In this document: positions 2,018 through 28,574 of the stretch, piece by piece
How positions within the stretch are numbered: position 1 is the stretch's first letter
Layout: every line of letters starts with the position of its first letter
From: Candidatus Latescibacterota bacterium
GTDB lineage: Bacteria; Latescibacterota; UBA2968; UBA8231
Reading direction: 5' to 3'
NCBI GenBank assembly: GCA_965261395.1
Contig: OZ253462.1
Coordinates: 4,224,001 to 4,288,000 of the forward strand
DNA length: 64,000 nt
Position numbers and translations under genes: made by a program
Notes under the pieces: model-generated
Seen by the model: only the letters and a program-made list of their open reading frames with translations
What the model was told of the DNA's origin: nothing
Database searches by the model: none

Positions 2018-2046
2018 ATGTCTTATAAAATGTTAATATGTAAACA
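2018..2046 (+). repeat. dif-like site 1 (11-7-11)
   Basis: ATGTCTTATAA-AATGTTA-ATATGTAAACA; the same motif recurs at 5523, 11090 and 28547. Confidence 0.7.
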
Positions 2047-2081
2047 AAAGTAAAAAAGAATCAACAAACTAAAAAAAACCC

Positions 2082-3056
2082 TCAACTACCAATCCTAATA
2101 TAATCAGACGCATTATCGAGCAGCCTTTCGCGGTTCTCATAGTAGCGCATAGTCGTCTTTAGATCCTTGTGGCGCAAATGAGCTTGTACCTGTTGGGGCT
2201 TGGCTCCGCCTTCAATCGCCAGGGTGCAGCACGTGTGGCGGAACATGTGCGCGGTGACATTCTGGGGAAGGCCAGCGCGCAGGGCGTATTTCTTGACGAT
2301 GTGATTTACCGACTGGTCGGTCAGCGGCTGGCCGCGCGAATGGTTACGCGACAGGCTGATGAAGACCTTGCCGGTCGCCGGCAAACCCGCCACCTGTAGT
2401 TGTTGTTTGTATAGTTCGAGATGATGTAGGACGACGCTTTGTAGTTTGATCTCCTGCGCCACGCCCGATTTAGTCTGGGGCAGGTGCAGGATGTAAAAGA
2501 CGCCTTCTAAGGCTATATCCTCCCAGGCGACGCCCGCCACCTCGGAGCGGCGCAGCCCGCCGAAAGTGAGCAACTGAAAGATGGCCGCATCCCGCGTGCG
2601 GACCAAGTCGTCTTTTTCCTCGGCAATAGCTTGCTGCATCTTGTGCAACACCTGATTGGAAAGCGCTTTGCCGGCCAGCGTTTCGTCCACTTTGTAGCCG
2701 CGCACCAAGGTGGAGTCGGCGGGATTCTTCTCGATGTGGCCTAAGGCGACCAGCATCTTGAATAACGACTTCAGGCTGGACAATTTTCTGTTGATGCTGC
2801 TGCGCTTGTAGCCTTCGCTGGCGAGTTGGTTTCTAAAGGCGACCACGTGCTCAAAGGTGATTGACTGCAAGACGGCGAGCGACACGTCATTTAGTTCCAT
2901 GCCGATAGATGCAAAGAAATGCTGGAGATCGGCGTAATACGCACGTCGAGTGCGCTCGCTGAGCTGACCGCTGAGAAATTGTTCCAAAGGGTCGTCCGAG
3001 ACCAACGCTGGTGTTGGCGTCAGCCGGCGGACGACCGGATTGAGTGTTTCGCTCAT
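2082..3056 (-). CDS. Tyrosine recombinase, XerC/XerD-like
   Basis: N-terminal core-binding region (SERTRRAYYADL, SSINRKLSSLKSLF). Catalytic R (GLRRSE), K (TKSG), HxxR (HMFRH), H (LRH) and Y (TTMRY) all present. Confidence 0.93.
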   Translation of the reverse strand: MSETLNPVVRRLTPTPALVSDDPLEQFLSGQLSERTRRAYYADLQHFFASIGMELNDVSLAVLQSITFEHVVAFRNQLASEGYKRSSINRKLSSLKSLFKMLVALGHIEKNPADSTLVRGYKVDETLAGKALSNQVLHKMQQAIAEEKDDLVRTRDAAIFQLLTFGGLRRSEVAGVAWEDIALEGVFYILHLPQTKSGVAQEIKLQSVVLHHLELYKQQLQVAGLPATGKVFISLSRNHSRGQPLTDQSVNHIVKKYALRAGLPQNVTAHMFRHTCCTLAIEGGAKPQQVQAHLRHKDLKTTMRYYENRERLLDNASDYIRIGS

Positions 3057-3156
3057 AAATACTCGCTGGGGCTTAATTGGTATCTAATGTCCCAAATATA
3101 GCGAACATCGCGACATTTTGTTGCCGCATATCACAAGGGATTCGCCTAGTTTTTAG

Positions 3157-3184
3157 ACTATTGATAATGCCTGTTATCGTTAGT
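3157..3184. other. Near-palindromic 11-6-11 recombinase/dif-like site upstream of the recombinase
   Basis: ACTATTGATAA-TGCCTG-TTATCGTTAGT; arms 9/11 complementary, with ATAA-N6-TTAT core. Confidence 0.65.
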
Positions 3185-3207
3185 ATAATGACTAAATTAA
3201 TAAAGAA

Positions 3208-4974
3208 CTAGAATTTTCTCAATAGACGCTCCATATCGCTCAATTTCATCCTCGCCATGATCGGCTTGTCCGTCGGGCTTATGTGCGGCGAATCAACCTT
3301 TAGCAATTCGTTGATCAAGTGCTCCATTTCTTCGGCGTTCAGTTTCTGTCCCTTCTTGATGCTCGCTTTGCGCACGTAAGCCAAGACGAGTGCTTCGCGC
3401 CAAGATCGGCCCGAATGCTGGCCATCGCGCACATCGTTCAATAGTTGATAAAAAACATCGCCTTCGCCAAAGCGATCCAATTCCGCGGGCACCGCTTCCA
3501 CCAACACCGTCCGCACACCAAAATCCCGCACGGCAAAGCCCAGCTTGGCAATGTCAGCCCGCACTTGGTTGAAGATCGCAAAATCCGCTGCGCCCATTTC
3601 TAGCTGTATGGGAAAGAGCAACTGCTGACTTGTCTCGCCAAGGTGAGGTGAAGCGCCGGCCACGCCGGCCATTTGCGCCATCGCCCGATCGTAGTTGATG
3701 CGTTCGTGCGCGGCCTGCTGATCGACGAAGAGCAAGCCGTCGGCTACCTCGACGAGGATGTACTGGTTGTGGACCTGCCACATCGCGGCGTCTTCGGCTA
3801 AGGCGACTTTGGCCTCGGCCGAGGCCACGAAGGTCAGGGCAAGTTGGTCGTCTGCATCGTGGGTTGCTGTTACCTCGGGCTCGCTAGGCGTGGGCAAGCT
3901 GTGCAACGCCGGCGACGTCGGTTCGCCCACCCGGACCGGGACCGGCGCGACGCTCGCAGCACTGCTGTCATAGACAAAGGATTGCGTATCGGGCAGTCTG
4001 AGCTTCTGCCGGACGCTATTCTCAATGGCCGCGACAACCTGCCCTTCGTTGGCTAAGCGAATCTCCCGTTTTGTCGGATGGACGTTGACGTCGATTTTCT
4101 TGGGATCCATATCGATCCAGAGCATGAATACCGGATGATGGCCTTCGGGCAGCAGCCCCCCAAAGCAGCGCTGTACAGCACTGGCCATCAGCCGCGAATA
4201 AATGGGCCGCCCCTGAACGATGAGGTACTGCTTGCCCTTGCTCCGGCCGCAGTGCTCGGAGCCAGCCAAGACTCCTTCGATCTTGAGGCCCTCCTCCTCG
4301 TGAGCGAAATCCAACAGTTCGGTGACTGGAATGCCCAACAGCTCGGCCGCCCGCTCCCGACGAGATGCCGGGGCGTAGCTCAATACCTTGCGATCTTGGT
4401 GCTCTAATTCAAAGCTAAGGGCCGGATAGCTGGCGGCTAAATGGATAATGGTCTGTGCCACGTGGCGGGCTTCCGTATCAACGGGCCGGAGGAATTTTCG
4501 ACGGGCCGGCGTATTAAAGAACAGATTCTTCACCACGATGGTCGTGCCACGCGCTCGGCCCATACTGTGCATCTCTCGCTCTATCCCCCCTTCCACGACC
4601 AAGCGCGTCCCAACTTCGTCTTGCTGCGCACGCGATTCTATCGCCAAGTAGGCCACCGCCCCAATACTGGCTAGGGCCTCGCCGCGAAACCCCAGGGTCT
4701 GAATGTGAAACAGGTCGGCCACCGAGGCCATCTTGCTCGTGGCATGACGACGCGCGCACAGAGCAATATCCTCTCTGTTCATGCCCGAGCCATCGTCGGT
4801 TACGACAATTGACTGCTTGCCACCGGCCTTGATTTCTACGCGGATTTTAGCGGCACCCGCATCAATCGAGTTTTCGACCAATTCCTTCACGACCGAGGCT
4901 GGCCGTTCCACTACCTCACCGGCGGCAATTTTTCCAATGAGACTTTCGTCGAGAACGCGAATGGTACTCGTCAT
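3208..4974 (-). CDS. mutL: DNA mismatch repair protein MutL
   Basis: IAAGEVVERPASVVKELVENSIDAGA, HATSK, GFRGEAL, DVNVHPTKREI; C-terminal endonuclease motifs degenerate. Confidence 0.96.
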   Translation of the reverse strand: MTSTIRVLDESLIGKIAAGEVVERPASVVKELVENSIDAGAAKIRVEIKAGGKQSIVVTDDGSGMNREDIALCARRHATSKMASVADLFHIQTLGFRGEALASIGAVAYLAIESRAQQDEVGTRLVVEGGIEREMHSMGRARGTTIVVKNLFFNTPARRKFLRPVDTEARHVAQTIIHLAASYPALSFELEHQDRKVLSYAPASRRERAAELLGIPVTELLDFAHEEEGLKIEGVLAGSEHCGRSKGKQYLIVQGRPIYSRLMASAVQRCFGGLLPEGHHPVFMLWIDMDPKKIDVNVHPTKREIRLANEGQVVAAIENSVRQKLRLPDTQSFVYDSSAASVAPVPVRVGEPTSPALHSLPTPSEPEVTATHDADDQLALTFVASAEAKVALAEDAAMWQVHNQYILVEVADGLLFVDQQAAHERINYDRAMAQMAGVAGASPHLGETSQQLLFPIQLEMGAADFAIFNQVRADIAKLGFAVRDFGVRTVLVEAVPAELDRFGEGDVFYQLLNDVRDGQHSGRSWREALVLAYVRKASIKKGQKLNAEEMEHLINELLKVDSPHISPTDKPIMARMKLSDMERLLRKF

Positions 4975-4980
4975 TTATCC

Positions 4981-5505
4981 TCACAACTCGGCCCAGAGCC
5001 GCTCGGCCTGCTGCCGGAATTCGGCTTGGGTAATTTTGCCTTGTTTGAGCGCGGTTTCCAAGTCGCGCAAGCGGCGGCGCGGCCCTCCTCCCCCTTTGAC
5101 ATCCAGCCGTATTTGGGACCAGATGTGCCACCCCCCCACGCCGAGCAACAAGGCGATGAAGACCACCCCGCCCCACCACGAGTCATCTTGCTCTTGGTGT
5201 ACCGCTCCCCCCTTTTGTCGCCAATCTTCAGCCACGGCTGAGTCGGGCTCGGCTAGCGCGATCCGCTTGGCCATCGTCGCGCCGTTGGTCCCTTGGACGC
5301 GCACGGCCCTTTTGAGCTGCCAAGTAAATCCCCGGGGTTTCTCGATCAGATGCTCAATGAGATCGGCCTCTCTTATCTGATCGAACTGCTCTTTGGTAAC
5401 CGGCACGGCCATAGGGCCAAGCATATTGAACAGCAACACGATCGCCAATAAGAAAGATGCTAACGCAAGAGCGAAGTATGTGGGTGGAGTGGATGAGTTA
5501 TTCAT
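4981..5505 (-). CDS. Two-TM membrane protein with C-terminal SHOCT-like motif
   Basis: Two hydrophobic segments; LETALKQGKITQAEFRQQ resembles SHOCT. Confidence 0.65.
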   Translation of the reverse strand: MNNSSTPPTYFALALASFLLAIVLLFNMLGPMAVPVTKEQFDQIREADLIEHLIEKPRGFTWQLKRAVRVQGTNGATMAKRIALAEPDSAVAEDWRQKGGAVHQEQDDSWWGGVVFIALLLGVGGWHIWSQIRLDVKGGGGPRRRLRDLETALKQGKITQAEFRQQAERLWAEL

Positions 5506-5522
5506 TATTTGTTTTTTATTTT

Positions 5523-5550
5523 TATTTACATATTAAATTTTATAAGACAT
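5523..5550 (-). repeat. dif-like site 2 (11-6-11)
   Basis: Minus strand ATGTCTTATAA-AATTTA-ATATGTAAATA; inverted copy of site 1 with an identical left arm. Confidence 0.72.
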
Positions 5551-5551
5551 T

Positions 5552-6352
5552 TTATTTTACTTGCCTACGGTTCAAGACCGCGTCTTGTCTTGCCGACGTG
5601 CGCATCCATTCCAAGAGACGATAGCTTTCAGCGACTTGGTCCAAACCCACCAACGGTTGAGCACGTCCTTGGATACAGGCGACGAAATTGCGATAATACG
5701 CCGCCAGATCGTCCGCTTCCCATGCCCAAGGCCAAGACGTGTCGACTATCTCGTCCTGTGCATACGAGCTGATCCGCAAAGCTGGGGCCACAGCCGGAAA
5801 GTCCATGAGTGCGACCGAGCCTTCGACGCCGTTGCGCATTCTCAGCAACGCAACCGACACGTCCTCCATGCGCCCGGGGTGAAAGAAGTTGCGCATCCTG
5901 CTGTACAGCATATCTACCCGCCCCCAAGTGCTCAGCAACAGGTCGCATACGTCCAAGGCCGCTTGGTTACAGATCATCTCGCGGTCGATGGGATCGAATA
6001 GAGCAGAATCAAAAGAAAGCTCTAGTGAGTAATGCGCTACGCCCTGCTGAGCGGCCAAAGCCGTGCAAAAGTGCGTATGCCTCCCCCGTGAAAATACGCA
6101 CACATTGGGGTGGCTGTTTGCAAACGACTCCTGCACGGGATGGGTGGCCATGACGTGGAGACCGGCTGCCGTGGCAACGCCAATCCAATGCGACTTGTCC
6201 TCCACGTGTAACAGCACCAGCCCATCTATTTTTTGTTTTAAGATCGCGGCGCAATCGGCTTGGTGTACGAGTTGGATATTGCAGCAGCCCCGCAAGGCAT
6301 CCCGATGGACGGCTATCTCGCGGGCATGGCCTGCTACGCCGAGCGTCATCAT
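5552..6352 (-). CDS. Degenerate Gfo/Idh/MocA-like oxidoreductase
   Basis: AGLHVMATHP (cf. AGKHVLCEKP), EDVSVALLRMRNGVEGSV, NFVACIQG; coupled to hprK. Confidence 0.55.
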   Translation of the reverse strand: MMTLGVAGHAREIAVHRDALRGCCNIQLVHQADCAAILKQKIDGLVLLHVEDKSHWIGVATAAGLHVMATHPVQESFANSHPNVCVFSRGRHTHFCTALAAQQGVAHYSLELSFDSALFDPIDREMICNQAALDVCDLLLSTWGRVDMLYSRMRNFFHPGRMEDVSVALLRMRNGVEGSVALMDFPAVAPALRISSYAQDEIVDTSWPWAWEADDLAAYYRNFVACIQGRAQPLVGLDQVAESYRLLEWMRTSARQDAVLNRRQVK

Positions 6353-7290
6353 GGTTTTTTGCCCGTCTTAATTCGCTCCTGAAGCCTTTGGCTAAACGTC
6401 CGCGCTGCGTAATCCCCGTCCAAGCGCAAGAGATAATCTATCGCGATGGTCTCGGCGAGTACCGTAATATTTTTACCGGGAAACAGCGGTATGAAGACCT
6501 CGGGCACCTCAACGCCGAGGATTACCACCTTATTGTCTTCGATGCCAAGGCGTTCGTAGGCGTATTTTTCGTCCCAATCGACGAGGTTGACCAACACCTC
6601 CACTCGCTTCTGCCGCCGAGTCCTCCACGCACCAAACATCTTTTTTACATCTAGGATGCCGATGCCGCGAATTTCGATGTGGTCTTGGAGCATCTCCGAG
6701 CTGCGCCCCACCAAAATGCCTTGGGGCTTGCGATTGATGATGACCATATCGTCGGCCACCAACCGATGCCCGCGCTCGACCAAATCCAAGGCGACCTCGC
6801 TCTTGCCAATACCGCTGCGGCCGCGAAAGAGCAGCCCTACCCCAGAGACATCGACCAGCGTCCCATGTATGGACACTTGGGGCGCGAACACCTCGTCGAG
6901 ATAAAAGCGGATGAGATGAGTAAATTCGGCTGTGGTGAATCCGGACTTTAGCAGCGGGACTTCGCGCTCGTCGGCTAGCTCCCGCAGCTCGGAGTACAAG
7001 CGCCCCCGACCGGTCAAGACTACGCATGGAATATCGAATTGATACATGATTTCGAGCGCCTGCCGCCGTCGATCTGGGGATAAGCTGCGCAGGTACTCCG
7101 CTTCGGTATTGCCCAAAAGCTGCACTTGATCCAAGGTAAACAGCTCGACGAAGCCTGTCAGAGCCAAGCCGGGACGATGGATGTCGCTGCTGTTTATGGT
7201 CCGCTGTAGCCCCTCGGCACCGGCGATGAGCTTCAGCTGTAGTTGCTCCCCGTAGGTCGCTAGTAGATCCTTGATGGCCAGTTTACTCAT
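6349..7290 (-). CDS. hprK: HPr kinase/phosphorylase
   Basis: HRPGLALTG, HGTLVDV, GRSGIGKSEVALDLVERGHRLVADD, EIRGIGI. Confidence 0.96.
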   Translation of the reverse strand: MSKLAIKDLLATYGEQLQLKLIAGAEGLQRTINSSDIHRPGLALTGFVELFTLDQVQLLGNTEAEYLRSLSPDRRRQALEIMYQFDIPCVVLTGRGRLYSELRELADEREVPLLKSGFTTAEFTHLIRFYLDEVFAPQVSIHGTLVDVSGVGLLFRGRSGIGKSEVALDLVERGHRLVADDMVIINRKPQGILVGRSSEMLQDHIEIRGIGILDVKKMFGAWRTRRQKRVEVLVNLVDWDEKYAYERLGIEDNKVVILGVEVPEVFIPLFPGKNITVLAETIAIDYLLRLDGDYAARTFSQRLQERIKTGKKP

Positions 7291-8221
7291 CGCTACTCAA
7301 GCTTTCGAAAATGCGCCGGTATCCTTCGTAGCGCGCCGACGCCACTCGACCGGCTGCCACAGCCGCACGGACCGCGCAACCGGGTTCGTGCAAGTGGCTG
7401 CAATCGCCGAATTGGCACTGGCCATGCAGGGATTCTAGCTCGGGATAATACGCCGCTAGCTCAGCGGGTTTTACTCCCCACAAGCGGAGCTCTTTAACCC
7501 CTGGTGTATCAGCCACATAGCCGCCTTGTTGCAACTTGAACAAATGCACGACCGTCGTCGTGTGCCGGCCCCGGTCGTGGCGCTTCATTATTTCCCTTGT
7601 CTTGAGTCCCAACCCCGGCTCAATGCCGTTGAGCAAGGTCGATTTGCCGACCCCAGATTGGCCGACCACGGCCGTGCTGCGATTGATCAGGCCTTCTTTG
7701 AATGCACCCATGCCGTCGCCTCGTAGGGCACTGGTGCGATAGATTGGATAACCGAGGGCCTCATAGGGAGCGGTCAGGGTGTTCACGGCTGCTGGGGAGA
7801 CTAAATCGACCTTGTTGATGCAGACTACAGGCTGGAGATTTCCCTTTACGGCCATGACAATCGCTCGGTCGATAAAGCCTCGGCGAGGCTTCGGTTGGCA
7901 AGCGGCCACAACGACGACCAATTGCTCCATATTGACAAAGAGGATCTGCTCAAACGGGCGCCCCCCACTAGCTCCACGCGAGAACTTGGAAGATCGGGGA
8001 TGCACCGCTTCGATCACGCCCGTCCGTTCGGCTGTAGGCACCACCTCGACCCAGTCACCGGCGACAACCGGAGAGCTGGTCTTGCGGTAACCCGCCTTGA
8101 GACGGCCCCGAATCTCACATTGCCAGTGGATTCGCTCGACCTCGACGAGGCACTGTAGCCCAGAGACTCTGATGATGCGGCCCTGCATGCGCACCTGCTC
8201 TTGCCTACTCCCCTTTGGCAA
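7283..8221 (-). CDS. rsgA: Ribosome small subunit-dependent GTPase RsgA (true start may be 8188)
   Basis: NKVD, GQSGVGKST, GRHTTT, DTPG, and CQFGDCSHLHEPGC zinc site. Confidence 0.96.
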   Translation of the reverse strand: MPKGSRQEQVRMQGRIIRVSGLQCLVEVERIHWQCEIRGRLKAGYRKTSSPVVAGDWVEVVPTAERTGVIEAVHPRSSKFSRGASGGRPFEQILFVNMEQLVVVVAACQPKPRRGFIDRAIVMAVKGNLQPVVCINKVDLVSPAAVNTLTAPYEALGYPIYRTSALRGDGMGAFKEGLINRSTAVVGQSGVGKSTLLNGIEPGLGLKTREIMKRHDRGRHTTTVVHLFKLQQGGYVADTPGVKELRLWGVKPAELAAYYPELESLHGQCQFGDCSHLHEPGCAVRAAVAAGRVASARYEGYRRIFESLSSDE

Positions 8222-8927
8222 GGCGCTCGGCCAGGTAGTTGGGGTAGCCGAGGTTGTTAATCTTCTGTTGGGTTAGTTTGACTGGGTATTCGACACGCTG
8301 GAGTTCGACCCATTGCTCGTCTGTATCCCACAGGGTGTACGCCGACCGCCAGTCCCCATCGCGGGGTTGGCCGACACTGCCGACGGAGACCAAGTATTGG
8401 TGATCCCCTATGGCAGCCGTGGCCGAGGTCAGCAGCATGGGCTCGTCGTGCATCTTGCAGTAAATTCGTGCTTCGTGGGTGTGACCGACAAAAGCCAATG
8501 GCCACTTGAGATGGCTCATGCACCAAACGACGCGATCGTACATGAGGAGGGGTTCCCATTCTTCGGGCTTGAGGGGGTTGGCGTGGGACAGAGCCGCATT
8601 GCGCTCCACGCGCCGAAAGATCCCTTGCCGCAAAAAGTCGCATTCTTCCTCCCCCAATACCTCGCATGCCTGGTAGAGCGAAGGGCGGGCCAGCAGGTTA
8701 AAAGACTGGATGCGCACCGGCTCCAGCACAGCTTGGTCGTGGTTGCCCAGCACGATCTGCGCATCTACCTCCTTGAGCCGATAGATGCATCCCAACGGAT
8801 CGGGACCGTACCCCACGATATCCCCCAAGCAGATAATGCGCTCAGCACCGGCGTTGGCCGCAGCGATCAATACGGCCTCTAGCGCTTCGAGATTGGCGTG
8901 GATATCGGCGAGCACTGCGATCTTCAA
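8205..8927 (-). CDS. Metallophosphoesterase (calcineurin-like)
   Basis: DIHAN, GDIVGYG, GNHD, GHTH, GSVGQPRDG. Confidence 0.92.
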   Translation of the reverse strand: MKIAVLADIHANLEALEAVLIAAANAGAERIICLGDIVGYGPDPLGCIYRLKEVDAQIVLGNHDQAVLEPVRIQSFNLLARPSLYQACEVLGEEECDFLRQGIFRRVERNAALSHANPLKPEEWEPLLMYDRVVWCMSHLKWPLAFVGHTHEARIYCKMHDEPMLLTSATAAIGDHQYLVSVGSVGQPRDGDWRSAYTLWDTDEQWVELQRVEYPVKLTQQKINNLGYPNYLAERLAKGE

Positions 8928-8938
8928 AGGGCCCTGCC

Positions 8939-9865
8939 TCAGTTGAATAGTGCGCTAATGGAGGTTTCTTCGTGGATAGCCCGGATGGCGCTGGCAAAGA
9001 GAGGAGCCACGGAGCACACCTGCGTCATGGGTGTGCGGGCATCCGCCGGCAAGGGAATCGTATCAGTAATGGCGAGGGCTTGGAGGCTGGATTGATCCAG
9101 CCTCCCTATTGTCTCTTTGGTTAGGGTACCGTGGACGCAACCAGCGTAGATTTTGCGCGCCCCGCGCTCTTTGACGGCGGCGGCTCCCTTGAGGATGGAA
9201 GTGCCGGTAATGATCGCGTCGTCGAAGAATACGACATCGCGGTCAGATACATCGCCAATGACCCGGTTTTCCCCGGCACCCTGATCAACGACGACGAGGG
9301 GCAACCCCAACCGCTGGGCATAGGTCTCGGTGACCTTGGCGCGGCTGATGTCTGGAGCGGCCGCGACTAAGTTGTCGAGGTCGAGGTCGGCGTAATAAGC
9401 GCATATTGCCGGGACGCCACTTAGTTGATCAACTAGGATCCGGCTAAAGCCCATAGTCTGCGGGCTGTGTAAGGTCATGGTGAGAATGCGATCCGCCCCG
9501 GCTTCGGCGATCAGATCTGCCACTAAGCGGCCGGCCACGGAAATCCTCGGCTCGTCCTTGCTGTCGGCCAGAGCATACGGATAGTACGGCAGGACGGCGG
9601 TGATGCGGCCAGCCGAGGCGTATTTTAGGGCGTCGAGAGCTATGAGCAGCTCCATCAAATAGTCGCTAACGGGCGGACACGAGGTTTGAATAAAGAACAC
9701 ATCACGACCTCGCACGTTTTCACAGATCTTTACCTTTATATTTTCGTTGCTAAAGTCGATAAACTCGATGCGCCCCGGCTCAATGCCCAGCGACTCGTAA
9801 ATGCCCTTAGCCAGTGCGGGATTGCTCCGCCCGGCGAAAACCTTGAGATCCGTACTCCCCATCAA
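8939..9865 (-). CDS. prs: Ribose-phosphate pyrophosphokinase paralog (divergent)
   Basis: RITAVLPYYPY, LHSPQ, DDAIITGTS, CVHG, ITDTIP; lacks the conserved Arg and the KxR loop. Confidence 0.85.
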   Translation of the reverse strand: MMGSTDLKVFAGRSNPALAKGIYESLGIEPGRIEFIDFSNENIKVKICENVRGRDVFFIQTSCPPVSDYLMELLIALDALKYASAGRITAVLPYYPYALADSKDEPRISVAGRLVADLIAEAGADRILTMTLHSPQTMGFSRILVDQLSGVPAICAYYADLDLDNLVAAAPDISRAKVTETYAQRLGLPLVVVDQGAGENRVIGDVSDRDVVFFDDAIITGTSILKGAAAVKERGARKIYAGCVHGTLTKETIGRLDQSSLQALAITDTIPLPADARTPMTQVCSVAPLFASAIRAIHEETSISALFN

Positions 9866-9873
9866 TAGACCCC

Positions 9874-10542
9874 TTAAAACATAGCGAGTGCAGCTCGGGC
9901 TTGAGCGGCAATCGGGTACTGAGAAAATGTGCGACTGACCTCTTCGAGTAGGGCCTGTTGCTTGTTGCTCTCGCCGGCCAAACCATATATGCGGGCTGCT
10001 TCCATCCGCGCCATGGCCTCGCGGATCGTCCCTGCCTGTTGGGCCGCATAGGCTTCGTAGTGCCCGGCCGCGGCCAAGAGCTGCCCTTCGGCTTCGAGAC
10101 AGGCACCAAGACCGCTCTGGGCCGCATAGGCCAAAACATCCAAAGGCTCGTAGTTGTCCAAATAGCTCTGGTAATAGCCCCGGGCCTCGGCGTAGCGGCC
10201 CTGCGCGTAATGGAGATTGGCCAAGAGCACGACCCCTTGGGCTGCGGCCGGAGTCCCGGCATAGGAGGACACCAGCTCTTCGGCCAAGCGGATCGCCTCG
10301 GTCGGCTCTCCGCCCTGCTCGACCATCAGCACATCGCCGAGTAGGGCCGCGGCTTTGAGCCTATTGGCCTCGTTGGACTCGATGAAATAATTGATGGCCA
10401 TAATGACCACTATCACTGCGACGACCCCACCGCCAAAGAGGTTGGCGCGCTCTTTGACGTACTCGACCGCCTGCATGATCCATTCGATGAACTCGTCTTC
10501 GCGGAGTTCACTCTTGCTCAGTTTACGGCGTTCACTCGACAT
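9874..10542 (-). CDS. Membrane-anchored TPR protein (YfgM-like)
   Basis: N-terminal ELREDEF, one TM helix, then TPR-like helices. Confidence 0.75.
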   Translation of the reverse strand: MSSERRKLSKSELREDEFIEWIMQAVEYVKERANLFGGGVVAVIVVIMAINYFIESNEANRLKAAALLGDVLMVEQGGEPTEAIRLAEELVSSYAGTPAAAQGVVLLANLHYAQGRYAEARGYYQSYLDNYEPLDVLAYAAQSGLGACLEAEGQLLAAAGHYEAYAAQQAGTIREAMARMEAARIYGLAGESNKQQALLEEVSRTFSQYPIAAQARAALAMF

Positions 10543-10578
10543 GAAGGTATGGTGTCTCCATGGTTTTGGGTTCTGGTT

Positions 10579-11091
10579 TCAATAGACGATAGCACTTTCC
10601 AATTTGTACCCGTGCAAGAGGTCGCGGCCCGACAGAAAGCTCAACTCGGCCAAAACGCTGATGCCCGCCACAACGGCCCCTAGTTTTTCGAGCACTTGAC
10701 ACGTCGCCGCCAAGGTCCCCCCGGTGGCCAAAACGTCATCCACGACCAATACCTTTTGCCCTGGTGCGATGGCATCGGTGTGTATTTCTAAAGCCGTTTC
10801 GCCGTATTCGAGCGCGAAAGCACGGCGCAGCGTGGCCGCCGGTAGCTTACCCGGCTTGCGCACCGGCACAAAACCGCATCCCAATTCGAGTGCTATGGGC
10901 GTCGCGAACACAAATCCACGGGCCTCTATGCCGGCGACGAGGTCCACTTCGGCGTCTGCAAAGGGCGCGAGCATGGCTTGGACCGCGGCTGATAAACCAG
11001 CGGGGTCTTTGAGCAGCGGCGTGATGTCTTTGTATAAGACACCGTCTTGCGGGAAGTTGGGAATTTCGCGGATTAGATCTTTTATATTCAT
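10579..11091 (-). CDS. apt: Adenine phosphoribosyltransferase
   Basis: GIEARGF, RKPGKLP, LEYG, VDDVLATGGT. Confidence 0.97.
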   Translation of the reverse strand: MNIKDLIREIPNFPQDGVLYKDITPLLKDPAGLSAAVQAMLAPFADAEVDLVAGIEARGFVFATPIALELGCGFVPVRKPGKLPAATLRRAFALEYGETALEIHTDAIAPGQKVLVVDDVLATGGTLAATCQVLEKLGAVVAGISVLAELSFLSGRDLLHGYKLESAIVY

Positions 11092-11117
11092 TTTACATAT
11101 TATATTTTATGAGTCTT
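11090..11117 (-). repeat. dif-like site 3 (11-6-11)
   Basis: Minus strand AAGACTCATAA-AATATA-ATATGTAAAAT; fills the whole gap between the small upstream gene's stop and the apt ATG. Confidence 0.72.
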
Positions 11118-11280: not shown

Positions 11281-12231
11281 CTAGCCCTCCCATTCAATCA
11301 AGCGGCTCACTGATTCTCCGTGGTGGATGGCTTTGATCGCATCCCCCAACAACCGGGCGACGCTCAAAACGGCGATTTTACGCCTCGGCTTGCCCTCTGG
11401 TAAGGGAATGGTATTCGTGGTGGCGAACACTTCCACTGAGGAGGCATCGATCCTCTCTAGGGCGTGCCCGGAAAAAACGCCGTGCGTACAGCCGGCCAAT
11501 ATTCGGCGTACGCCCCTTTCTTTGAGGACCTGCATCGACTCCATCATGGACCCCCCCGTCAGCACCTCGTCGTCGAAGAGCAAGGCGTCGCGGCCTTCGA
11601 CCTCGCCGATCATATTTTTAATCTCGGCCTTTTCGTCGTCTGCGTGGCGGCGTTTGTCCATAATGGCCAGCGGCAAACCGAGCCAGCGTGCGTACGCACT
11701 GGCTTCGTCGGCACTCCCCACGTCGGGCGACACTACTACGGCGTTGCTGAGGTCTTTCATCCGCATAAAATTGCACAGTAGGCTCGTAGCCCATAGCTGG
11801 TCAACTGGAATGCGTGAGAACGCCACGATTTGTGGGCTGTGTAAGGTAATAGTCAAGATCCGGTCGGCCCCGGCCGCTTGGAGTAAGTCGGCGACGAGAC
11901 GGGCACTAATAGAAATGCGGGGTTCGTCCTTTTTATCGGAGCGCACATAAGGATAATAGGGCAACACGGCCGTAATCCGGCGCGACGAAGCGTACTTGAG
12001 CGCGTCGATTAGCAACAGCAGTTCAACGAAGTGATGGTTGACCGGCGATGCTGACGTCTGGACGACGAAGACGTCGTCTTCGCGCACGTTCTCCTCAATT
12101 TTAACCTTTATATTGTCGTTGGGCTCGCGGACGATCTGGCGGCGAGTGGGCACGATGGCCAAGTAATCACATATCTCCTGGGCCAGTTCTGGATTGCTCG
12201 AACCCGACAATATTTTTAGGTGATTTTTCAT
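11281..12231 (-). CDS. prs: Ribose-phosphate pyrophosphokinase
   Basis: PYYPYVRSDKK, SPDVGS, DKRR, DDEVLTGGS, THGVFSG, TNTIP. Confidence 0.93.
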   Translation of the reverse strand: MKNHLKILSGSSNPELAQEICDYLAIVPTRRQIVREPNDNIKVKIEENVREDDVFVVQTSASPVNHHFVELLLLIDALKYASSRRITAVLPYYPYVRSDKKDEPRISISARLVADLLQAAGADRILTITLHSPQIVAFSRIPVDQLWATSLLCNFMRMKDLSNAVVVSPDVGSADEASAYARWLGLPLAIMDKRRHADDEKAEIKNMIGEVEGRDALLFDDEVLTGGSMMESMQVLKERGVRRILAGCTHGVFSGHALERIDASSVEVFATTNTIPLPEGKPRRKIAVLSVARLLGDAIKAIHHGESVSRLIEWEG

Positions 12232-20714: not shown

Positions 20715-20791
20715 TGGTGAGCTAACCAGGATTCGAACCTGGGACCTCCGGTTCCGGAGACCGGCGCTCTATCCAACTGAGCTATTAGCCC
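20715..20791 (-). tRNA. tRNA-Arg(CCG)
   Basis: CCGGT-CTCCGGA-ACCGG anticodon arm, GGTTCGAATCC, encoded CCA. Confidence 0.96.
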
Positions 20792-20797
20792 CTTAGC

Positions 20798-20893: not shown

Positions 20894-21203
20894 CTTTTTT
20901 GTCTCCTGGATCTTTGTCCTCTACGTTTTCCCCATTGACGCGCGCCCGCAATTCCTTTGAAGGCTTAAACGTCGGGGCCTTGCGACCGGCGATTTTTACT
21001 TCGGCACCCGTACGCGGATTGCGGCCTGTGCGCGGCGCCCGCTCGACGACTTTGAAGGTGCCAAAACCGCGAATTTCAATGTGATTTTCCCGTTCCAAAG
21101 CCTCGACTACGGATTCAATAAAGCCATCGACAATAGCTGCAGTATCCGTCTTGGTAAGCCCTGTTCCTTCGGCGATTAGACGCACGATATCAGCTTTTGT
21201 CAA
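20862..21203 (-). CDS. hup: HU/IHF family DNA-binding protein
   Basis: MTKADIV, IEIRGFGTF, GRNPRTG, PTFKPSKELR. Confidence 0.93.
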   Translation of the reverse strand: MTKADIVRLIAEGTGLTKTDTAAIVDGFIESVVEALERENHIEIRGFGTFKVVERAPRTGRNPRTGAEVKIAGRKAPTFKPSKELRARVNGENVEDKDPGDKKDALWQEEKAA

Positions 21204-21267
21204 GACCGTAATCTCTATTCGGGTGGGTTGAAACCGCGTTAACTATCACGCCAACAAATAGTTTTAT

Positions 21268-21296
21268 AGGATATAGCACGATCCATGTTCTGTCAA
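21268..21296 (-). promoter_or_regulatory. Sigma70-type promoter for hup-bS22-tRNA unit
   Basis: TTGACA-N17-TATCCT on minus strand. Confidence 0.55.
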
Positions 21297-21312
21297 GATA
21301 AGCAGTGCCCTC

Positions 21313-22086: not shown

Positions 22087-22092
22087 AGTCGA

Positions 22093-23112: not shown

Positions 23113-23313
23113 TCTGTATCTCCATCCAAAAAGTTAAATCTAGACTCTGTAGCCTTGGTCTGAACACCCCGGCATCAAGAGCATCCGCTACTACTTAATC
23201 TATAATAACCAAGGTGATTTGGATTTGCCAAATCACCTGCCCTCTCATATCTTTTAGCGCTAGTTAATTCTGGACACAACTAACGCAAATTTCAAGGAGG
23301 CAGCGCATTCGCT

Positions 23314-23799
23314 ATGAACAAGGCTGCGCGGCATGTACTGCGGAGATTAGGCACTGATACTAGCTTGGACCACGAGCGCCAACAGCGCCTTTCACGCGAG
23401 GTCCAAGAAGAGCAGCAAAAACGCCGGGAACAAGGGGGCGATCAAGATACCAGCTTCGAGGCCATTCCCGAGGAAATGCTGACGGAGTCGGAAAAGCGCC
23501 ACGAGAAGTATCGCCGCCAACAGGCCATGGCCGGCCGGTTTACCCCCGCTGCCGAGCGCCTGCCCATTATGACGGCTGAAGAGCGGGCCGCCCACAACAA
23601 GGATCGTCCCAAGTGGCAGCAGACTTCGTTTGAGGGGCCGATTGAAAAGCTAATCGAGAAATACCAAGACCTAGAGGAAGTACAACGCCATCTGACCTTG
23701 GGTCAATCCATGAAGTACGAGTTTACCAGCGACGGCCGCGTCCTCGACAAAGAAGGCAATGTGATCTTCGATGGAGAAAAGCTCGTCGGCAAACTCTAG
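23314..23799 (+). CDS. Hypothetical charged protein
   Basis: AGGAGG upstream of ATG; 161-aa ORF divergent from mreB. Confidence 0.7.
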   Translation: MNKAARHVLRRLGTDTSLDHERQQRLSREVQEEQQKRREQGGDQDTSFEAIPEEMLTESEKRHEKYRRQQAMAGRFTPAAERLPIMTAEERAAHNKDRPKWQQTSFEGPIEKLIEKYQDLEEVQRHLTLGQSMKYEFTSDGRVLDKEGNVIFDGEKLVGKL

Positions 23800-23852
23800 G
23801 TTAGCTTGCTCCCCTCTTAAGACGCACAAGTGGCCGCTGGCCACAATCCGAC

Positions 23853-24917
23853 TTGATGCCTCGTCTTTATCGACTTCTCATCGGGCTTGGCCTGTTGAGC
23901 GTCTGTGGCTGCAATCTCAATTACTATTGGCATCTGGCTCGCGGCCAAAGTCGCGTGGTATACAAGCGCATACCAGTCCAAAACCTCCTCGCCCGCCCCG
24001 ACTTGGCCGAGCAAACTCGGACGCAACTAGAGCTGATCCAAGCCATTCTTCGCTACGCCGAAAGCGTGGGGCTGAAAACAGACGATCATTACACGACCTT
24101 CTACGATACGGGTGGCGACCCGATCAGTTGGAATGTTAGCGCTTCTCCGCCCGACCACTTCTCGCCCTATACTTGGGATTTTCCGTTCGTCGGCGAGGTC
24201 CCCTACAAAGGTTTCTTTTGCCGCGACTTGGCCGACGAGCAGCGCGATGCCCTCGCCGCTGCTGGGTATGACGCAATCGTTCGCCCGGTCAGTGCCTACA
24301 GCACCTTGGGCATTTTCTCCGATCCAATCCTCAGCTCAATGCTCGGCTACGCGCCCGACCAGCTAGCCGATTTGATCCTCCACGAACTGACTCACGCCCT
24401 CGTCTATGCCCCGGGGCAGACCGATTACAACGAGAGCTTGGCGACCTTCGTCGGCCGCCAAGGATCCCTGCTCTTCTTGGTGCAGCACTTCGGCACCGAG
24501 ACTCCTCTCTTGCAACAGGCCGAGGCGCGACGAGCGGACGCGGCCCTCTTTCGGCACTTCATGGCCGAGACCGTTGCAGCACTCGACAGCCTCTACTCAT
24601 TGGACTTGCCCCGCAGCGTTGTACTGCGCGACCGGCAGGTCGTTTTTGCTCAGCGCCAGCGCGATTTCGCCCTCATTAGAACGCAGTTTACCAACAACCA
24701 GTACGATGGGTTCCTCCAGTGGGAACTAAACAATGCACGGCTTCTGTCTTATCGTCGCTACAACGCCAATCTAGCGCTTTTTTCCGCTGTTTATCTCGCC
24801 CGTGACGAGGACTTGGCCAGTGCCTTGGAGATTTTTGCGGCCTGCGCTGAAGACGGGGACCCCTGGCAGTGCCTACGCGTCACAATAGAGGCGAAGGAAG
24901 CGAGGAACTCGTTCTAG
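23853..24917 (+). CDS. Putative zinc aminopeptidase lipoprotein
   Basis: Lipobox-like VCGC, YYWHLARGQ, W.FPFVGEVPYKGFF, AYSTLG.FSDP, HELTH...NESLA. Confidence 0.85.
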   Translation: MMPRLYRLLIGLGLLSVCGCNLNYYWHLARGQSRVVYKRIPVQNLLARPDLAEQTRTQLELIQAILRYAESVGLKTDDHYTTFYDTGGDPISWNVSASPPDHFSPYTWDFPFVGEVPYKGFFCRDLADEQRDALAAAGYDAIVRPVSAYSTLGIFSDPILSSMLGYAPDQLADLILHELTHALVYAPGQTDYNESLATFVGRQGSLLFLVQHFGTETPLLQQAEARRADAALFRHFMAETVAALDSLYSLDLPRSVVLRDRQVVFAQRQRDFALIRTQFTNNQYDGFLQWELNNARLLSYRRYNANLALFSAVYLARDEDLASALEIFAACAEDGDPWQCLRVTIEAKEARNSF

Positions 24918-24946
24918 CATTCTCTTCGCTAAACTCTTGGGTCCGA

Positions 24947-25816
24947 ATGGTAGCTAAACACATTTTGACAACGGTCTTGCTGGCGACCCTCGCCTTTGGG
25001 CCGCTGGGGTGCGCCGCGAGGTTGCAGTCCGCGCTAGTGGGGTCGCTGATAGAAGACGTCAGTGCGGCCACCGCCCGCCACGACGACTTGGATTTGGTCA
25101 CTTCGGGTGTACCTACCTTCCTGCTCTTATTAGAGGGACTGCTGGTAGCCAATCCCCAAGACCAGCAATTGCTCTTAAGCGCTGCTGAGACCTATACTTC
25201 CTACGCTACTTTGGTCGAAGTCGATGATCCTCAACGAGCCAAGCACCTGTACCACCGGGCCAAGGTGTACGGTCTCAAAGCCCTCTCTCAGCGCCTTCGT
25301 CAACCAAGCTTACTCCGAGCACCGTATGCTGAGTTTACCCACGTCATCGACGACTTAGAGACCTCAGATCTGCCGGTCGTGTTCTGGGCCGCTTCGAGTT
25401 GGGGTGCTTGGATCAGTGCCAATATTGAATCCATGGCGGCACTGGCCGAACTGCCCAAAGTCATTAAACTCATGCAGTGGATCGTGGCCCAAGACGAGAC
25501 CTTTCAATACGGGAGTCCTCATGTCTTCTTAGGGTCTTATTACGCAGCTCTGCCGCCGATGTTGGGCGGCGACCCGGAAAAGGCCACCGAGCACTTCGAC
25601 CGAGCAGTCGCCATCAGCAAAGGGCAGGTACTCATGGTGTACGTAGCCAAGGCCAAATTCTATGCGCGGAACACTTTTGACCGGGTGCTATACGAATCCC
25701 TGCTCAACCAAGCCCTAACCAGCCCAGCGGACGCCGTACCGGAGCTTACCTTGCAAAACATCGCCGCCCAAAAACAGGCGCAGATCCTGCTAGACCAAGC
25801 CGATGACTTCTTTTAA
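24947..25816 (+). CDS. TRAP transporter TatT (TPAT T) component
   Basis: Lipoprotein signal, PPMLGGDPEKA..HF, TLQN..AQKQA..LL...DDFF. Confidence 0.88.
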   Translation: MVAKHILTTVLLATLAFGPLGCAARLQSALVGSLIEDVSAATARHDDLDLVTSGVPTFLLLLEGLLVANPQDQQLLLSAAETYTSYATLVEVDDPQRAKHLYHRAKVYGLKALSQRLRQPSLLRAPYAEFTHVIDDLETSDLPVVFWAASSWGAWISANIESMAALAELPKVIKLMQWIVAQDETFQYGSPHVFLGSYYAALPPMLGGDPEKATEHFDRAVAISKGQVLMVYVAKAKFYARNTFDRVLYESLLNQALTSPADAVPELTLQNIAAQKQAQILLDQADDFF

Positions 25817-26807
25817 GGGATTTCTTGCGGTCGTTGCCGCTCTCATAGCCAGCTCTGTCGCGGCCCAACCCAATCACCTCCTCAAAATTGCGACCCTCGC
25901 CCCAGCAGGCAGCAGCTGGGCCAAGGTCCTCCGCACCATTGATGCGGACGTGCGGCGGGAGACGGGCGGCAACGTGGGGTTCAAAATCTATCCCGGCGGC
26001 GTCCAAGGCGACGAGAAGGTCATCTTGCGCAAGATGCGCATCGGCCAGCTCCACGGCGCTAATTTTGGCGGCCTAGGCATCAGCCAGACCTTTCCCGATG
26101 TCCTCGCGCTGGAAATGCCCTTCCTCTTCGACAGCTATGCCGAAATAGATTACGTGCTCGAGAAAATGGATGCCTTTTATCGGCAAGGATACGAGGAACG
26201 AGGCTATGTCTTTCTCGGTTGGGTCGACATTGGCTTTGTCCACATCCTCTCGCAGCAACCCGTAGCTACCGTCGCGGACATGCGCACTCAAAAGGTATGG
26301 CAGCTACCCGATGAACCGATTACCTCCGTGCTTTTCCGTATAGCCGGCGTTACCTCAGTTCCCCTGAACATCCCGGATGTCCTCCTCGGGTTGCAGACCA
26401 ACCTAATTGATGTAGTGTACGCCTCGCCGTCCGTGACCATCATTCTCCAATGGTTTACCCGCGCAAAATACGTCACCCAACTTCCCATCAACTACACCCT
26501 AGGCGCTCTCTTGCTCGACAAGCGAATTTTTGACAAAATTCCCGCCGCCGATCGCGAACACATCCACCGCATAGCGCAGCAGCACCTAGCCGCCTTGGGA
26601 CAGCGCAACCGCCGAGAAAACGACGAGGCCATGGCCGTGTTGCAGGCCAATGGCCTGTCGCTGGTCGAGGTTGGCCCTAACGATGTAGAGACCTTCAAGG
26701 GCCTCGTCGTCAGCGCCGAAGCCGAGCTCGTAGGTCGGGCCTTTTCCCGTGCGGCCTACGAGCAAATAGCGCGACACCTCCAGGAATTTCGCCAGGCTTC
26801 CCCTTGA
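25803..26807 (+). CDS. dctP: TRAP substrate-binding protein DctP
   Basis: KIATLAPAGSSW, YPGGVQGDE, KMRIGQL, LQTNLID. Confidence 0.92.
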   Translation: MTSFKGFLAVVAALIASSVAAQPNHLLKIATLAPAGSSWAKVLRTIDADVRRETGGNVGFKIYPGGVQGDEKVILRKMRIGQLHGANFGGLGISQTFPDVLALEMPFLFDSYAEIDYVLEKMDAFYRQGYEERGYVFLGWVDIGFVHILSQQPVATVADMRTQKVWQLPDEPITSVLFRIAGVTSVPLNIPDVLLGLQTNLIDVVYASPSVTIILQWFTRAKYVTQLPINYTLGALLLDKRIFDKIPAADREHIHRIAQQHLAALGQRNRRENDEAMAVLQANGLSLVEVGPNDVETFKGLVVSAEAELVGRAFSRAAYEQIARHLQEFRQASP

Positions 26808-27280
26808 GCGGTCAGCACTTCCTCCACCGACTCGAGACCGGCTTCCTCGTCCTTTTGGTCGCCTGCTTGCTGGTGCTGACCTGCGGGCAGATCATCGTGC
26901 GCAATCTGTTCTCCATCACCTTCTTGGGCACCGAAAGTCTCGTGCGGCACCTCGTGTTGTGGATTGGGCTAGCCGGCGCTTTGGTCGCCACCCGACTCGA
27001 CAAGCACATTCGCATTGACGCTGCGTTGCGCCTGCTACCTTTCCGAGTGCGAGCTATTGTCTTGAGCTGTGCAGACTTTTTTGCCGCTGCCCTTTGCGCC
27101 TATTTAGCCTATATCGCCGGGCGCTTCGTGCTCGACGAACGCGCATTCGGCACGGAGGCTTTCTTTGCCGTCCCCGCTTGGATTGCCCAACTCTGCTTTC
27201 CCCTCGTCTTTGGCCTGATGGGGCTGCGCTTCCTCTTGCAGGGCGGGCGACGCCTCCGCGCCCCCGCAGATCGCTCGTGA
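26804..27280 (+). CDS. dctQ: TRAP small permease DctQ
   Basis: QIIVRN, LVLWIGLAGA, HIRID. Confidence 0.9.
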   Translation: MSGQHFLHRLETGFLVLLVACLLVLTCGQIIVRNLFSITFLGTESLVRHLVLWIGLAGALVATRLDKHIRIDAALRLLPFRVRAIVLSCADFFAAALCAYLAYIAGRFVLDERAFGTEAFFAVPAWIAQLCFPLVFGLMGLRFLLQGGRRLRAPADRS

Positions 27281-28530
27281 GCAGCCTCCTAGCCACCCTA
27301 GCCGCCCTAGCCGGGGTCCCGCTCTTTGTGGTCATCAGTGCGATGGCCCTTTTGCACTTCTCCTTCGCCGAGATCGATTTAACCGTCGTCTTCATCGAGA
27401 TGTATCGGATAGCCGAAACCCCGACCTTAACGGCTATTCCGCTCTTCGCTCTCACGGGTTTCATCCTCGCCGAAAGCGGCGCACCGACTCGTCTGGTGCG
27501 CTTCTCCCAAGCCTTGCTCGGCTGGCTGCCAGGGGGTCTGGCCATTATGGCCATTATCGTCTGCGCCCTCTTTACTGCTTTGACCGGGGCTTCGGGAATG
27601 ACGATTGTCGCGCTCGGCGGGCTGCTCTTGCCCGCTCTACGGCAACAGCGCCTGCCCGATTCCTTTTCCCTCGGGCTGATTACCACTTCGGGCAGCTTGG
27701 GCTTGCTCTTTCCGCCGAGCCTGCCGCTGATCATCTACGGCATCGTATCCGAGACGCCAGTAGATCAGCTTTTCATCGCGGGCATCGCCCCCGGCTTGCT
27801 CTTGGTCGGTGCTCTGTCCTGCTACAGCTTGTTCCAAGGCCGGCGCAGTGCCGCGCCCGAGCGCCCTACCGGATGGCGCGAATTGCCGCAGGCCTTTGTC
27901 GCTTGTAGTTGGGAGCTTCTATTGCCGGTGGTGATCTTCGGGGGGATCTACGGGGGGATAATCGCCGTCAGCGAGGCTGCGGCTTTGAGCGCCCTATACG
28001 CTCTGGTAGTGGTGGTGTTAATCCGCCGCGAGGTCTCCATCGGGCAACTGCCGAAGATCATCTGCGAAAGCATGGTGCTAGTCGGCGGCATTTTCGTCGT
28101 CTTGGCCGCGGCCATGGCCTATACCAACTACCTCGTCGATGCGGAAGTCCCAACGCGCTTACTCGCCTATATAGAGACTCACATCAGCAGCCGCTTGCTG
28201 TTCTTGATTCTCCTCAATGTGTTTCTGCTAGCTGTTGGCTGTATGATCGACATGTTCTCCGCCCTCCTCATCGTCGTGCCCTTGATTCTGCCCATCGCCG
28301 AAGCATACGATGTTCATCCCATTCACCTTGGGATCATTTTTTTGACGAACTTGGAAATCGGCTACTCGACGCCGCCGGTTGGGCTTAACCTCTTTATTGC
28401 CAGCATTCGCTTTGAACAGCCCGTACATCGGCTCTACCGAGTCTCTTTGCCTTTTCTGTTGATTCTGTTGGCTTGTTTAGTTGTGATTACTTACTGGGCT
28501 GATTTGAGTTTGTTTCTCGTTGAGTCTTAA
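27277..28530 (+). CDS. dctM: TRAP large permease DctM
   Basis: AIPLF, GSLGLLFPPS, HPIHLGIIF..NLEIG..TPPVGLNLF; GTG start overlaps the dctQ stop. Confidence 0.93.
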   Translation: MSSLLATLAALAGVPLFVVISAMALLHFSFAEIDLTVVFIEMYRIAETPTLTAIPLFALTGFILAESGAPTRLVRFSQALLGWLPGGLAIMAIIVCALFTALTGASGMTIVALGGLLLPALRQQRLPDSFSLGLITTSGSLGLLFPPSLPLIIYGIVSETPVDQLFIAGIAPGLLLVGALSCYSLFQGRRSAAPERPTGWRELPQAFVACSWELLLPVVIFGGIYGGIIAVSEAAALSALYALVVVVLIRREVSIGQLPKIICESMVLVGGIFVVLAAAMAYTNYLVDAEVPTRLLAYIETHISSRLLFLILLNVFLLAVGCMIDMFSALLIVVPLILPIAEAYDVHPIHLGIIFLTNLEIGYSTPPVGLNLFIASIRFEQPVHRLYRVSLPFLLILLACLVVITYWADLSLFLVES

Positions 28531-28546
28531 ATTTTTTTATTGAGTG

Positions 28547-28574
28547 AATTTACATATTAATTTTTATATGGCAT
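28547..28574 (-). repeat. dif-like site 4 (11-6-11)
   Basis: Minus strand ATGCCATATAA-AAATTA-ATATGTAAATT; contains the mcrC stop codon; lies between convergent genes. Confidence 0.7.

Follow-up and report, generated by a model that had tools for sequence, protein, structure and literature searches.

Six polar dif-type sites around a third Xer-like recombinase gene at the replication terminus of a Candidatus Latescibacterota genome

Introduction

The stretch of DNA considered here (the window) comprises 64,000 nucleotides, positions 4,224,001-4,288,000, of a 6,549,484-bp single-contig metagenome-assembled genome (MAG; estimated to be 95% complete, with 8% contamination). Together with the sequence immediately to its left it carries six sites of the type recognised by Xer recombinases (dif), in two opposed groups on either side of a gene for a third Xer-like tyrosine recombinase. 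On balance, the genome sequences favour the view that the dif locus of the hosts, uncultured sponge-associated bacteria (Candidatus Latescibacterota), has expanded at the replication terminus into a conserved array of six polar sites, in which opposed sites exchange, the inner pair being the working sites and the outer four auxiliary.

To our knowledge, chromosomes almost always carry a single dif, and the additional dif-like sites that have been described are scars left by phages or islands, plasmid modules or XerD-only sites for unloading SMC. Here, a duplicated, inverted dif encloses a recombinase gene throughout a bacterial family, and one genus maintains six polar, exchanging sites. This provides a natural system for asking how several live Xer sites avoid deleting essential genes, whether Xer-site polarity organises termination or the traffic of FtsK or SMC, and what a third Xer paralogue adds to XerCD. 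It also implies that dif-type sites can drive terminus-centred inversions, which matters for reading synteny and skew in MAGs. No description of a polar multi-dif array, or of inverted dif sites enclosing a recombinase gene at a terminus, was found in the open-access literature searched (articles without their supplementary files). What is known is the Xer/dif site type, its location and the enzymes; what is new is the number of sites, their strict 3 + 3 polarity, the third recombinase gene set among them and the repeated terminus-centred inversions.

Results

Six dif-type sites in two opposed groups

A first-pass annotation of the window, made from its sequence alone, had proposed an array of four sites (S1, S2, S3 and S4). 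All four could be read directly in the window with the sequences and coordinates originally reported, and the 9-mer ATATGTAAA occurs four times in the window against an expectation of 0.14, a number that was reached in none of 100 shuffles. The set of four was incomplete, however, as two further sites, S0 and S(-1), were recovered to the left of the window with a looser dif template. The array thus reads S(-1), S0, S1 (+), recombinase gene, S2, S3, S4 (-), with six sites in 44 kb:

S(-1), outermost-left site: genome 4,208,482-509 (+), 15.5 kb left of the window; TAGTCATATAA-TGTATA-ATATGTTAAAC; the miaA ATG lies within the right arm
S0: genome 4,223,052-79 (+), 0.9 kb left of the window; ATGTCTTATAA-GGATAA-TTATGTCAACC; between an upstream stop codon and leuS, the ATG of which lies within the right arm
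S1, inner-left dif-type site: window 2018-2046 (+); ATGTCTTATAA-AATGTTA-ATATGTAAACA; 7-nt central region; between the convergent leuS and recombinase genes
Third Xer-like tyrosine recombinase gene, 324 aa: window 2082-3056 (-); PF00589 and a SAM-like N domain
S2, inner-right dif-type site: window 5523-5550 (-); ATGTCTTATAA-AATTTA-ATATGTAAATA; between the stop of a 266-aa open reading frame (ORF) and the start of a 174-aa ORF
S3, outer-right site: window 11090-11117 (-); AAGACTCATAA-AATATA-ATATGTAAAAT; the hpt ATG follows directly
S4, outermost-right site: window 28547-28574 (-); ATGCCATATAA-AAATTA-ATATGTAAATT; between the convergent dctM and McrC-like genes; breakpoint of a 44-kb inversion in the related genome G014

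The sites were confirmed to have the 28-bp geometry of dif, two 11-bp imperfect inverted arms separated by a 6-bp centre. The central region is 6 nt long in S2, S3 and S4; S1 is the exception with 7 nt (2029-2035), where no indel was reported in four public runs and where all S1 orthologues have 6 nt. Every TATGT arm (TATGTAAA in the window sites; XerD-type arm TATGTnAA) points to the centre of the array and hence to the recombinase gene, and the switch of polarity across that gene, as first described, was upheld. The gene-junction contexts also proved to be as described, with S1 and S4 between convergent genes, S2 between ORFs and S3 abutting the hpt start. Four of the six sites adjoin or contain start codons, and those inside operons are all co-oriented with transcription.

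The motif is rare outside the array. The 9-mer has just nine copies in the genome, the full motif being present at four of them, S1-S4, and the pattern ATAA-N5-8-TATGTAA has five matches genome-wide, S1-S4 and one at 3,408,997 with an 8-nt spacer. A general promoter or translation element was rejected as the motif is found nowhere else in 23 genomes, and a scan for promoters and terminators gave counts no better than those in shuffled sequence. Weak candidates at genome positions 4,299,881 (-), 4,188,842/7 and 4,159,518 were not counted, being neither AT-rich nor provided with the shared left arm. One 28-mer with a weak dif-like core is present twice, 132 bp apart, at genome positions 4,191,880 and 4,192,012, and is probably a coding or tandem repeat.

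The array lies at the replication terminus

The clustering of the sites at the terminus, which had been suggested at the outset, was supported by several features of the genome. The cumulative GC skew has its maximum at genome position 4,227,080 (4,227,090 when detrended), corresponding to window position ~3080, between S1 and S2, and the skew is plainly positive for ~0.8 Mb ahead of the maximum and negative for ~1.4 Mb past it. The dnaA gene lies opposite the array at 913,056, so that the replichores measure 3.31 and 3.24 Mb. G-rich strand-skewed octamers change strand at the array, with the final (+) word at window position 1726 and the first (-) word at 4586, although this test is partly circular as the octamers were derived from the same two arms. 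In 33 of 34 related loci (~10-kb flanks each), which include genera with just 58-68% recombinase identity, the recombinase gene has positive skew on its left and negative skew on its right. Family-wide, the replication terminus coincides with the recombinase locus.

The GC skew of the source genome is clean only from ~3.4 to 5.6 Mb; the origin-side half is patchy and the net G-C is -34,593. Together with the 8% contamination, these irregularities could reflect rearrangements or mis-joins in the MAG.

The local recombinase is a third Xer-like protein

The product of the recombinase gene matched the XerC, XerD and XerA models best, and it fell far below the cut-offs of the XerC, XerD, XerA and XerS models (110.7 bits against XerA, cut-off 220; 86.3 bits against XerS, cut-off 267). 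It is 25-26% identical to the XerD and XerC of its own genome, and in an alignment to these proteins the catalytic Arg, His-x-x-Arg, His and Tyr are retained; its best solved relative is E. coli XerD. At E <= 1e-40 the gene is single-copy in 59 of 75 genomes of the family and was detected in none of 93 genomes from 13 other families of the phylum. Its stop codon is 36 bp away from S1, and the adjacency of recombinase and site at the terminus holds across the family.

The recombinase had been described as stand-alone, which is not the case. A canonical XerD (344.1 bits; cut-off 329.6) and an XerC-like protein (315.2 bits, under the cut-off of 335.15 but passing the subfamily model PRK00283) are encoded elsewhere, at 3.61 and 5.76 Mb, so the local enzyme does not replace XerC/XerD in the manner of a single-recombinase system. 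The FtsK gamma domain and ScpA are also encoded in the genome. For the fork-trap proteins Tus and RTP, no match to PF05472 or PF02334 was obtained in this 95%-complete genome.

The sites are conserved in related genomes

A scan of the relatives showed that the array is a property of the genus. The pattern ATAA-N6-W-TATGTAA finds the four-site cluster in all 22 same-genus genomes, with one site facing one way and three the other and with spacings of about 3.5, 5.6 and 17 kb; stray matches numbered 0-3 per sister genome and a reversed-pattern control gave 0-1 per strand. The site at the 3' end of the recombinase gene fails the strict pattern in three sister genomes, and S4 is off the contig in one. 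With ATAA-N6-W-TATGTYAA, S0 was found in 22/22 and S(-1) in 17/22 sister genomes, and there was no other match there. In a set of 16 genomes examined, S4 was kept in all and S(-1) was intact and collinear in 13; S(-1) is degenerate in G015 and is replaced by an insertion in G020 (0.67 kb) and G012 (3.6 kb).

The conservation resides in the sites themselves. For the inner sites, column identity across 21-22 genomes is 92-95% in the arms, 69-81% in the central regions and 52-67% in the intergenic flanks, so that both arms stand out as islands in fast-evolving intergenic DNA. A T-to-A change at the inner base of the right arm, which the first-pass annotation had taken to be shared, is not fixed, as many orthologous sites have T.

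Five genomes without the local recombinase (three from the same family, two from other families) each have one matching site place, with the right arm TTATGTAAA; the window sites are therefore of the ordinary dif type of the phylum. In distant genera that have the recombinase, its gene alone is enclosed by two sites, the (+) one 220-725 bp upstream and the (-) one at most ~135 bp downstream, an arrangement present in at least 10 of 29 loci when up to two mismatches are allowed, several of the loci being on truncated contigs. Equivalents of S0 and S3 occur in other genera at 63-79% recombinase identity, with an S3-like site at hpt in locus L025.

A few departures from these patterns were also seen. 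The two insertions occupy the exact position of S(-1) (L095 4891-5557 in G020; L098 1960-5542 in G012), and only the right half-site remains in G020; S(-1) may be an insertion hot spot. In G197, one of the five genomes without the local recombinase, a second, inverted dif-like site lies ~25 bp from the first, after leuS (L064, G197:C1:1056160-1059178, ~1450-1530), and beside the pair is a gene for an unrelated 319-aa tyrosine integrase (L064 1624-2583) with 23% identity to the third recombinase; to judge from its sequence, this arrangement may have arisen by integration of an element at dif or by replacement of the module. In the sister genomes G019 and G022 (L019, L048) the core exceeds the usual length by 1.9-2.6 kb and has additional DNA separating mutL from the recombinase gene, and in G022 one central sequence is common to its three direct sites.

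Opposed sites have recombined

The genes on either side of the inner sites in the window are as follows:

leuS (3' part): 28-1977 (+); Pfam LeuRS editing and anticodon domains; start codon inside S0
mutL: 3208-4974 (-); Pfam; part of the invertible core in this genus
174-aa ORF (p174), function unassigned: 4981-5505 (-); first gene of the invertible core
Operon-like block of hpt, TPR, prs-like, phosphoesterase, rsgA, hprK and the 266-aa ORF (p266): 5552-11091 (-); between S3 and S2
McrC-like and McrB-like genes: 28564-31166 (-); outer flank of S4, next to it in 15/16 relatives

These genes are found in two orders. In form A (14 loci and the window) hpt..hprK-p266-p174-mutL-recombinase is followed by a convergent leuS, and in form B (10 loci) leuS-p174-mutL-recombinase is followed by a convergent p266-hprK..hpt; the 3.5-kb core between the inner sites (p174-mutL-recombinase) therefore inverts. 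When core orientation was placed on a maximum-likelihood tree built on the core (23 genomes), six changes were counted, five of them forced by well-supported branches, against a mean of 6.8 for shuffled orientations. Very closely related sisters differ in orientation (L016/L013 and L003/L005, for example), and in sister pairs the outer flank types exchange precisely at the sites. Assembly error is unlikely to account for this as both forms are found among complete long-read chromosomes. In 6 of 21 genomes the 6+1 nt of the centre are identical at the two inner sites, against 1.5 under shuffling (P about 0.001, with kin that are not independent); since the shared centre differs between genomes, this indicates concerted evolution.

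A larger inversion was found in G014, in which the entire 44-kb block from S(-1) to S4 is reversed. Homology to the window stops inside S4 and picks up again in the opposite direction at the outer flank of S(-1), and at the reciprocal junction the mcrBC flank is joined to miaA. The two junctions are reciprocal hybrid sites, TAGTCATATAA-TCTTTA-ATATGTAAATC and ACGACATATAA-TATATA-ATATGTTAAAT. Homologous recombination is not a credible source of this inversion because S(-1) and S4 share identity runs of only 7-8 nt. In another genus (L025), a module consisting of the recombinase gene alone is flipped relative to mutL..hpt. Taken together, the genome comparisons indicate that opposed sites recombine on an evolutionary scale, by site-specific exchange across the terminus. 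The suggestion that these might be bind-only sites is contradicted by the inversions and by the hybrid sites of G014. Among the compared genomes no deletion between direct repeats was seen.

The comparison of the two forms also bears on where exchange occurs. The central region, the right arm and the left-arm variants (TCC in L003, L005, L010 and L012; TTG in L009 and L017) travel with the core in both orientations. As the variants stay with the core, the point of exchange between S1 and S2 would lie at the outer edge of the left arm.

Discussion

A model for the array

The two innermost sites bracket the lineage-specific third recombinase and, in this genus, a small ORF and mutL as well; we suggest that dimers are probably resolved at this inner pair. 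Exchange between the inner sites flips the 3.5-kb core repeatedly, and exchange between the outermost sites has flipped the 44-kb block in one species. Such terminus-centred inversions could be tolerated as near-neutral changes because genes, G-rich polar words and sites all stay co-oriented with replication. Were direct repeats to recombine, leuS or the hprK-hpt block would be lost, and selection would remove the products. Which inner site sits at the polarity switch would depend on how the core is oriented; in this genome it is S1. The outer four sites appear to have been retained by selection, as auxiliary sites for Xer binding or recombination; oriented as they are, they would let machines heading to the terminus pass XerC-arm first, and they could serve as backup dif sites or as a polar barrier for FtsK, SMC or forks. 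The acting enzyme may be XerC/XerD, the third recombinase or both. As to the reaction, inner centres that are often unlike and left-arm variants that travel with the core suggest exchange of a single strand: one might conjecture that a strand exchange at the left boundary gives a Holliday junction, which moves outward along the identical left arm until replication or a host resolvase resolves it.

Several observations weigh against this model. Short Logan contigs from four public runs gave no strand-changing joint that would reveal both orientations in one population; the only sign there is a branch in the assembly graph, as each run has a contig beginning precisely at the inner edge of S2 (5525). 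The changes in core orientation could have arisen by rare events that were not site-specific, homologous recombination being excluded only by the G014 hybrids. In the genome studied here the 7-nt centre of S1 means that exchange between S1 and S2 may be blocked, and the core of this strain may be unable to leave its current orientation. Private central regions had to be rejected as the sole bar to deletion because identical centres are present between direct repeats in five genomes (G005, G015, G018, G019 and G022). Left-arm variants that stay with the core are not what a classical crossover in the central region predicts, and S(-1) has been lost or has degenerated in 3 of 16 genomes. Because four of the six sites are at gene starts, polarity could follow the direction of the genes and not that of replication. 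Finally, E. coli FtsK is stopped at XerCD-dif from either side (79% and 83%, in the available portion of PMC2800217), so outer sites that were fully occupied would make the inner ones harder to reach.

Relation to known Xer systems

In most respects the individual sites resemble those of XerCD/dif: they are 28 bp long, their geometry is 11-6-11 and their core ATAA-N6-(T/A)TATG, they are placed where the skew switches, the genome encodes XerD, an XerC-like protein and FtsK gamma, and relatives without the third recombinase have one such site. They differ in that there are six in two opposed groups, here and in the relatives, and not one per replicon, in the extra recombinase gene within the inner pair and in the recurrent terminus-centred inversions. 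Single-recombinase Xer systems have the recombinase gene linked to its site, according to the available portions of PMC2731167 and PMC1914069, and the present locus is like XerS/difSL, XerH/difH and archaeal XerA in the linkage of a recombinase gene to its presumed site at the terminus; unlike them, it has inverted sites on both sides of the gene and a recombinase that misses the XerS and XerA cut-offs, in a genome that retains XerC/XerD. The XerD-specific sites (XDS) of B. subtilis, which unload SMC, offer another parallel, as far as they are described in the available portions of two citing reviews (PMC11894783, PMC12322038): they too are Xer-type sites that accompany dif near the terminus, and the present genome likewise has Smc-ScpAB, whereas the sites of the array have both arms conserved, are strictly polar, fall within 44 kb and recombine.

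Alternative explanations

The alternative that survives best, which we nevertheless regard as improbable, is that the outer sites, perhaps all six, are one-way gates, that is polar protein-DNA barriers built from Xer sites. The recombinase, bound mainly to the conserved TATGT arm, would let replisomes, FtsK, SMC and RNA polymerase pass from the XerC-arm side and block them from the centre, and the opposed groups would form a trap around the 3.5-kb terminus core. The geometry is that of Tus-Ter and RTP-Ter, with two opposed polar groups around the terminus and the gene for a DNA-binding protein at the centre. The rtp gene likewise adjoins its inner Ter sites. The array is unlike these systems in that its sites are of dif type, its protein is a tyrosine recombinase with catalytic residues that, by alignment, appear intact, and no homologue of Tus or RTP was detected in the 95%-complete genome; this last point can also be counted in favour of the gates. 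The presence of FtsK gamma and ScpA, the strict polarity and conservation of the outer sites, and the co-orientation of the operon-internal sites with transcription would all suit a gate, and XerD bound to a dif half-site in vitro stops FtsK about 5-fold better from its outer face (available portion of PMC2800217). Against this, the complete XerCD-dif complex in the same study halts FtsK equally from both sides, both arms and not just the XerD-type arm are conserved, the direction of the genes explains the polarity equally well, and the sites recombine, which a pure barrier would not need. It is thus only tentatively that dif paralogues and a third Xer protein can be proposed to form a recombinase-based gate confining replisomes, FtsK and/or SMC to the invertible core. 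If they did, either inner site could be the active dif, since the core inverts, and the array would be a third independent solution to terminus trapping beside Tus-Ter and RTP-Ter, one that reuses the dimer-resolution machinery.

It is less likely still that the outer sites are relics, functionless copies of dif left by past Xer rearrangements or insertions and persisting through overlap with the starts, stops or ribosome-binding sites of essential genes. The right arms of S0 and S(-1) do contain the start codons of leuS and miaA, the S0 centre GGATAA resembles a ribosome-binding site for leuS, S(-1) has been lost or replaced in G012, G020 and G015, and the position of the inner-right site varies between lineages. 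Against this reading, the non-coding left arms, and S4 between its convergent genes, are kept in 16/16 genomes even with a different flank, S0 and S3 have equivalents in other genera, and the DNA motif is constant while the N-terminal codons vary (TTA or TCA).

A chromosomal version of the pdif modules, in which the blocks between sites move or are shuffled, is very improbable. The idea of a pdif-like cassette had been raised in the first-pass annotation, and it fits the inverted inner pair, since the core is bounded by inverted Xer sites and inverts as dif modules do, but it does not extend to the outer blocks, where direct repeats surround syntenic housekeeping genes. For the same reason, the genes being housekeeping and syntenic, a mobile island was rejected. 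The fim switch and the R64 shufflon/Rci system are similar in that inverted sites yield inversions only. Asymmetric sites disfavour deletion in the shufflon. In the array, unlike in these systems, no switching of promoters or coding ends is apparent, and the core is read from the upstream flank in either orientation. Acinetobacter, in which chromosomal islands of dif modules are known and a segment between inverted XerC/D-type sites can invert (available portion of PMC12907356), offers a parallel to a modular arrangement, and the insertions exactly at S(-1) in two genomes would be in keeping with it. The array differs from pdif/dif modules in its non-alternating site orientation, its housekeeping cargo (leuS, mutL, hprK, rsgA, prs, hpt and mreBC) with no accessory or resistance genes, its terminus location and its vertical inheritance without a sign of mobility; the order of the blocks is fixed genus-wide, that of mutL, recombinase and leuS family-wide, and there are no copies elsewhere in the genomes. 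Arrays of IMEX at dif are likewise different, as the blocks here hold syntenic essential genes and not mobile DNA between direct repeats, and IMEX-like use is hinted at only by the small insertions at S(-1) in G012 and G020.

The weakest proposal, that the sites are operators through which an Xer-like protein regulates adjacent operons by blocking translation starts or read-through, draws on the start codons at four of the six sites and can be set aside, as S1 and S4 lie between convergent genes with nothing downstream to regulate, the sites occur at the terminus only and agree with the dif of the phylum, the recombinase keeps its aligned catalytic residues and exchange has occurred.

Other features of the region

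The neighbouring genes in and around the array are of housekeeping type and comprise leuS, mutL, hprK, rsgA, two prs-like genes, hpt, genes for cysteine/methionine enzymes, ychF, HU, mreBC and a TRAP transporter, with the McrBC pair beyond S4. The two ribose-phosphate pyrophosphokinase-like genes flank S3, at window positions 8939-9865 and 11281-12231 (both -). A sigma-70-like promoter matching 11 of 12 positions (TTGATA, 17 nt, TATAAT) is present at window 3161-3189 (+) in the 150-bp gap between the recombinase gene and mutL, where it reads antisense into the 3' end of mutL.

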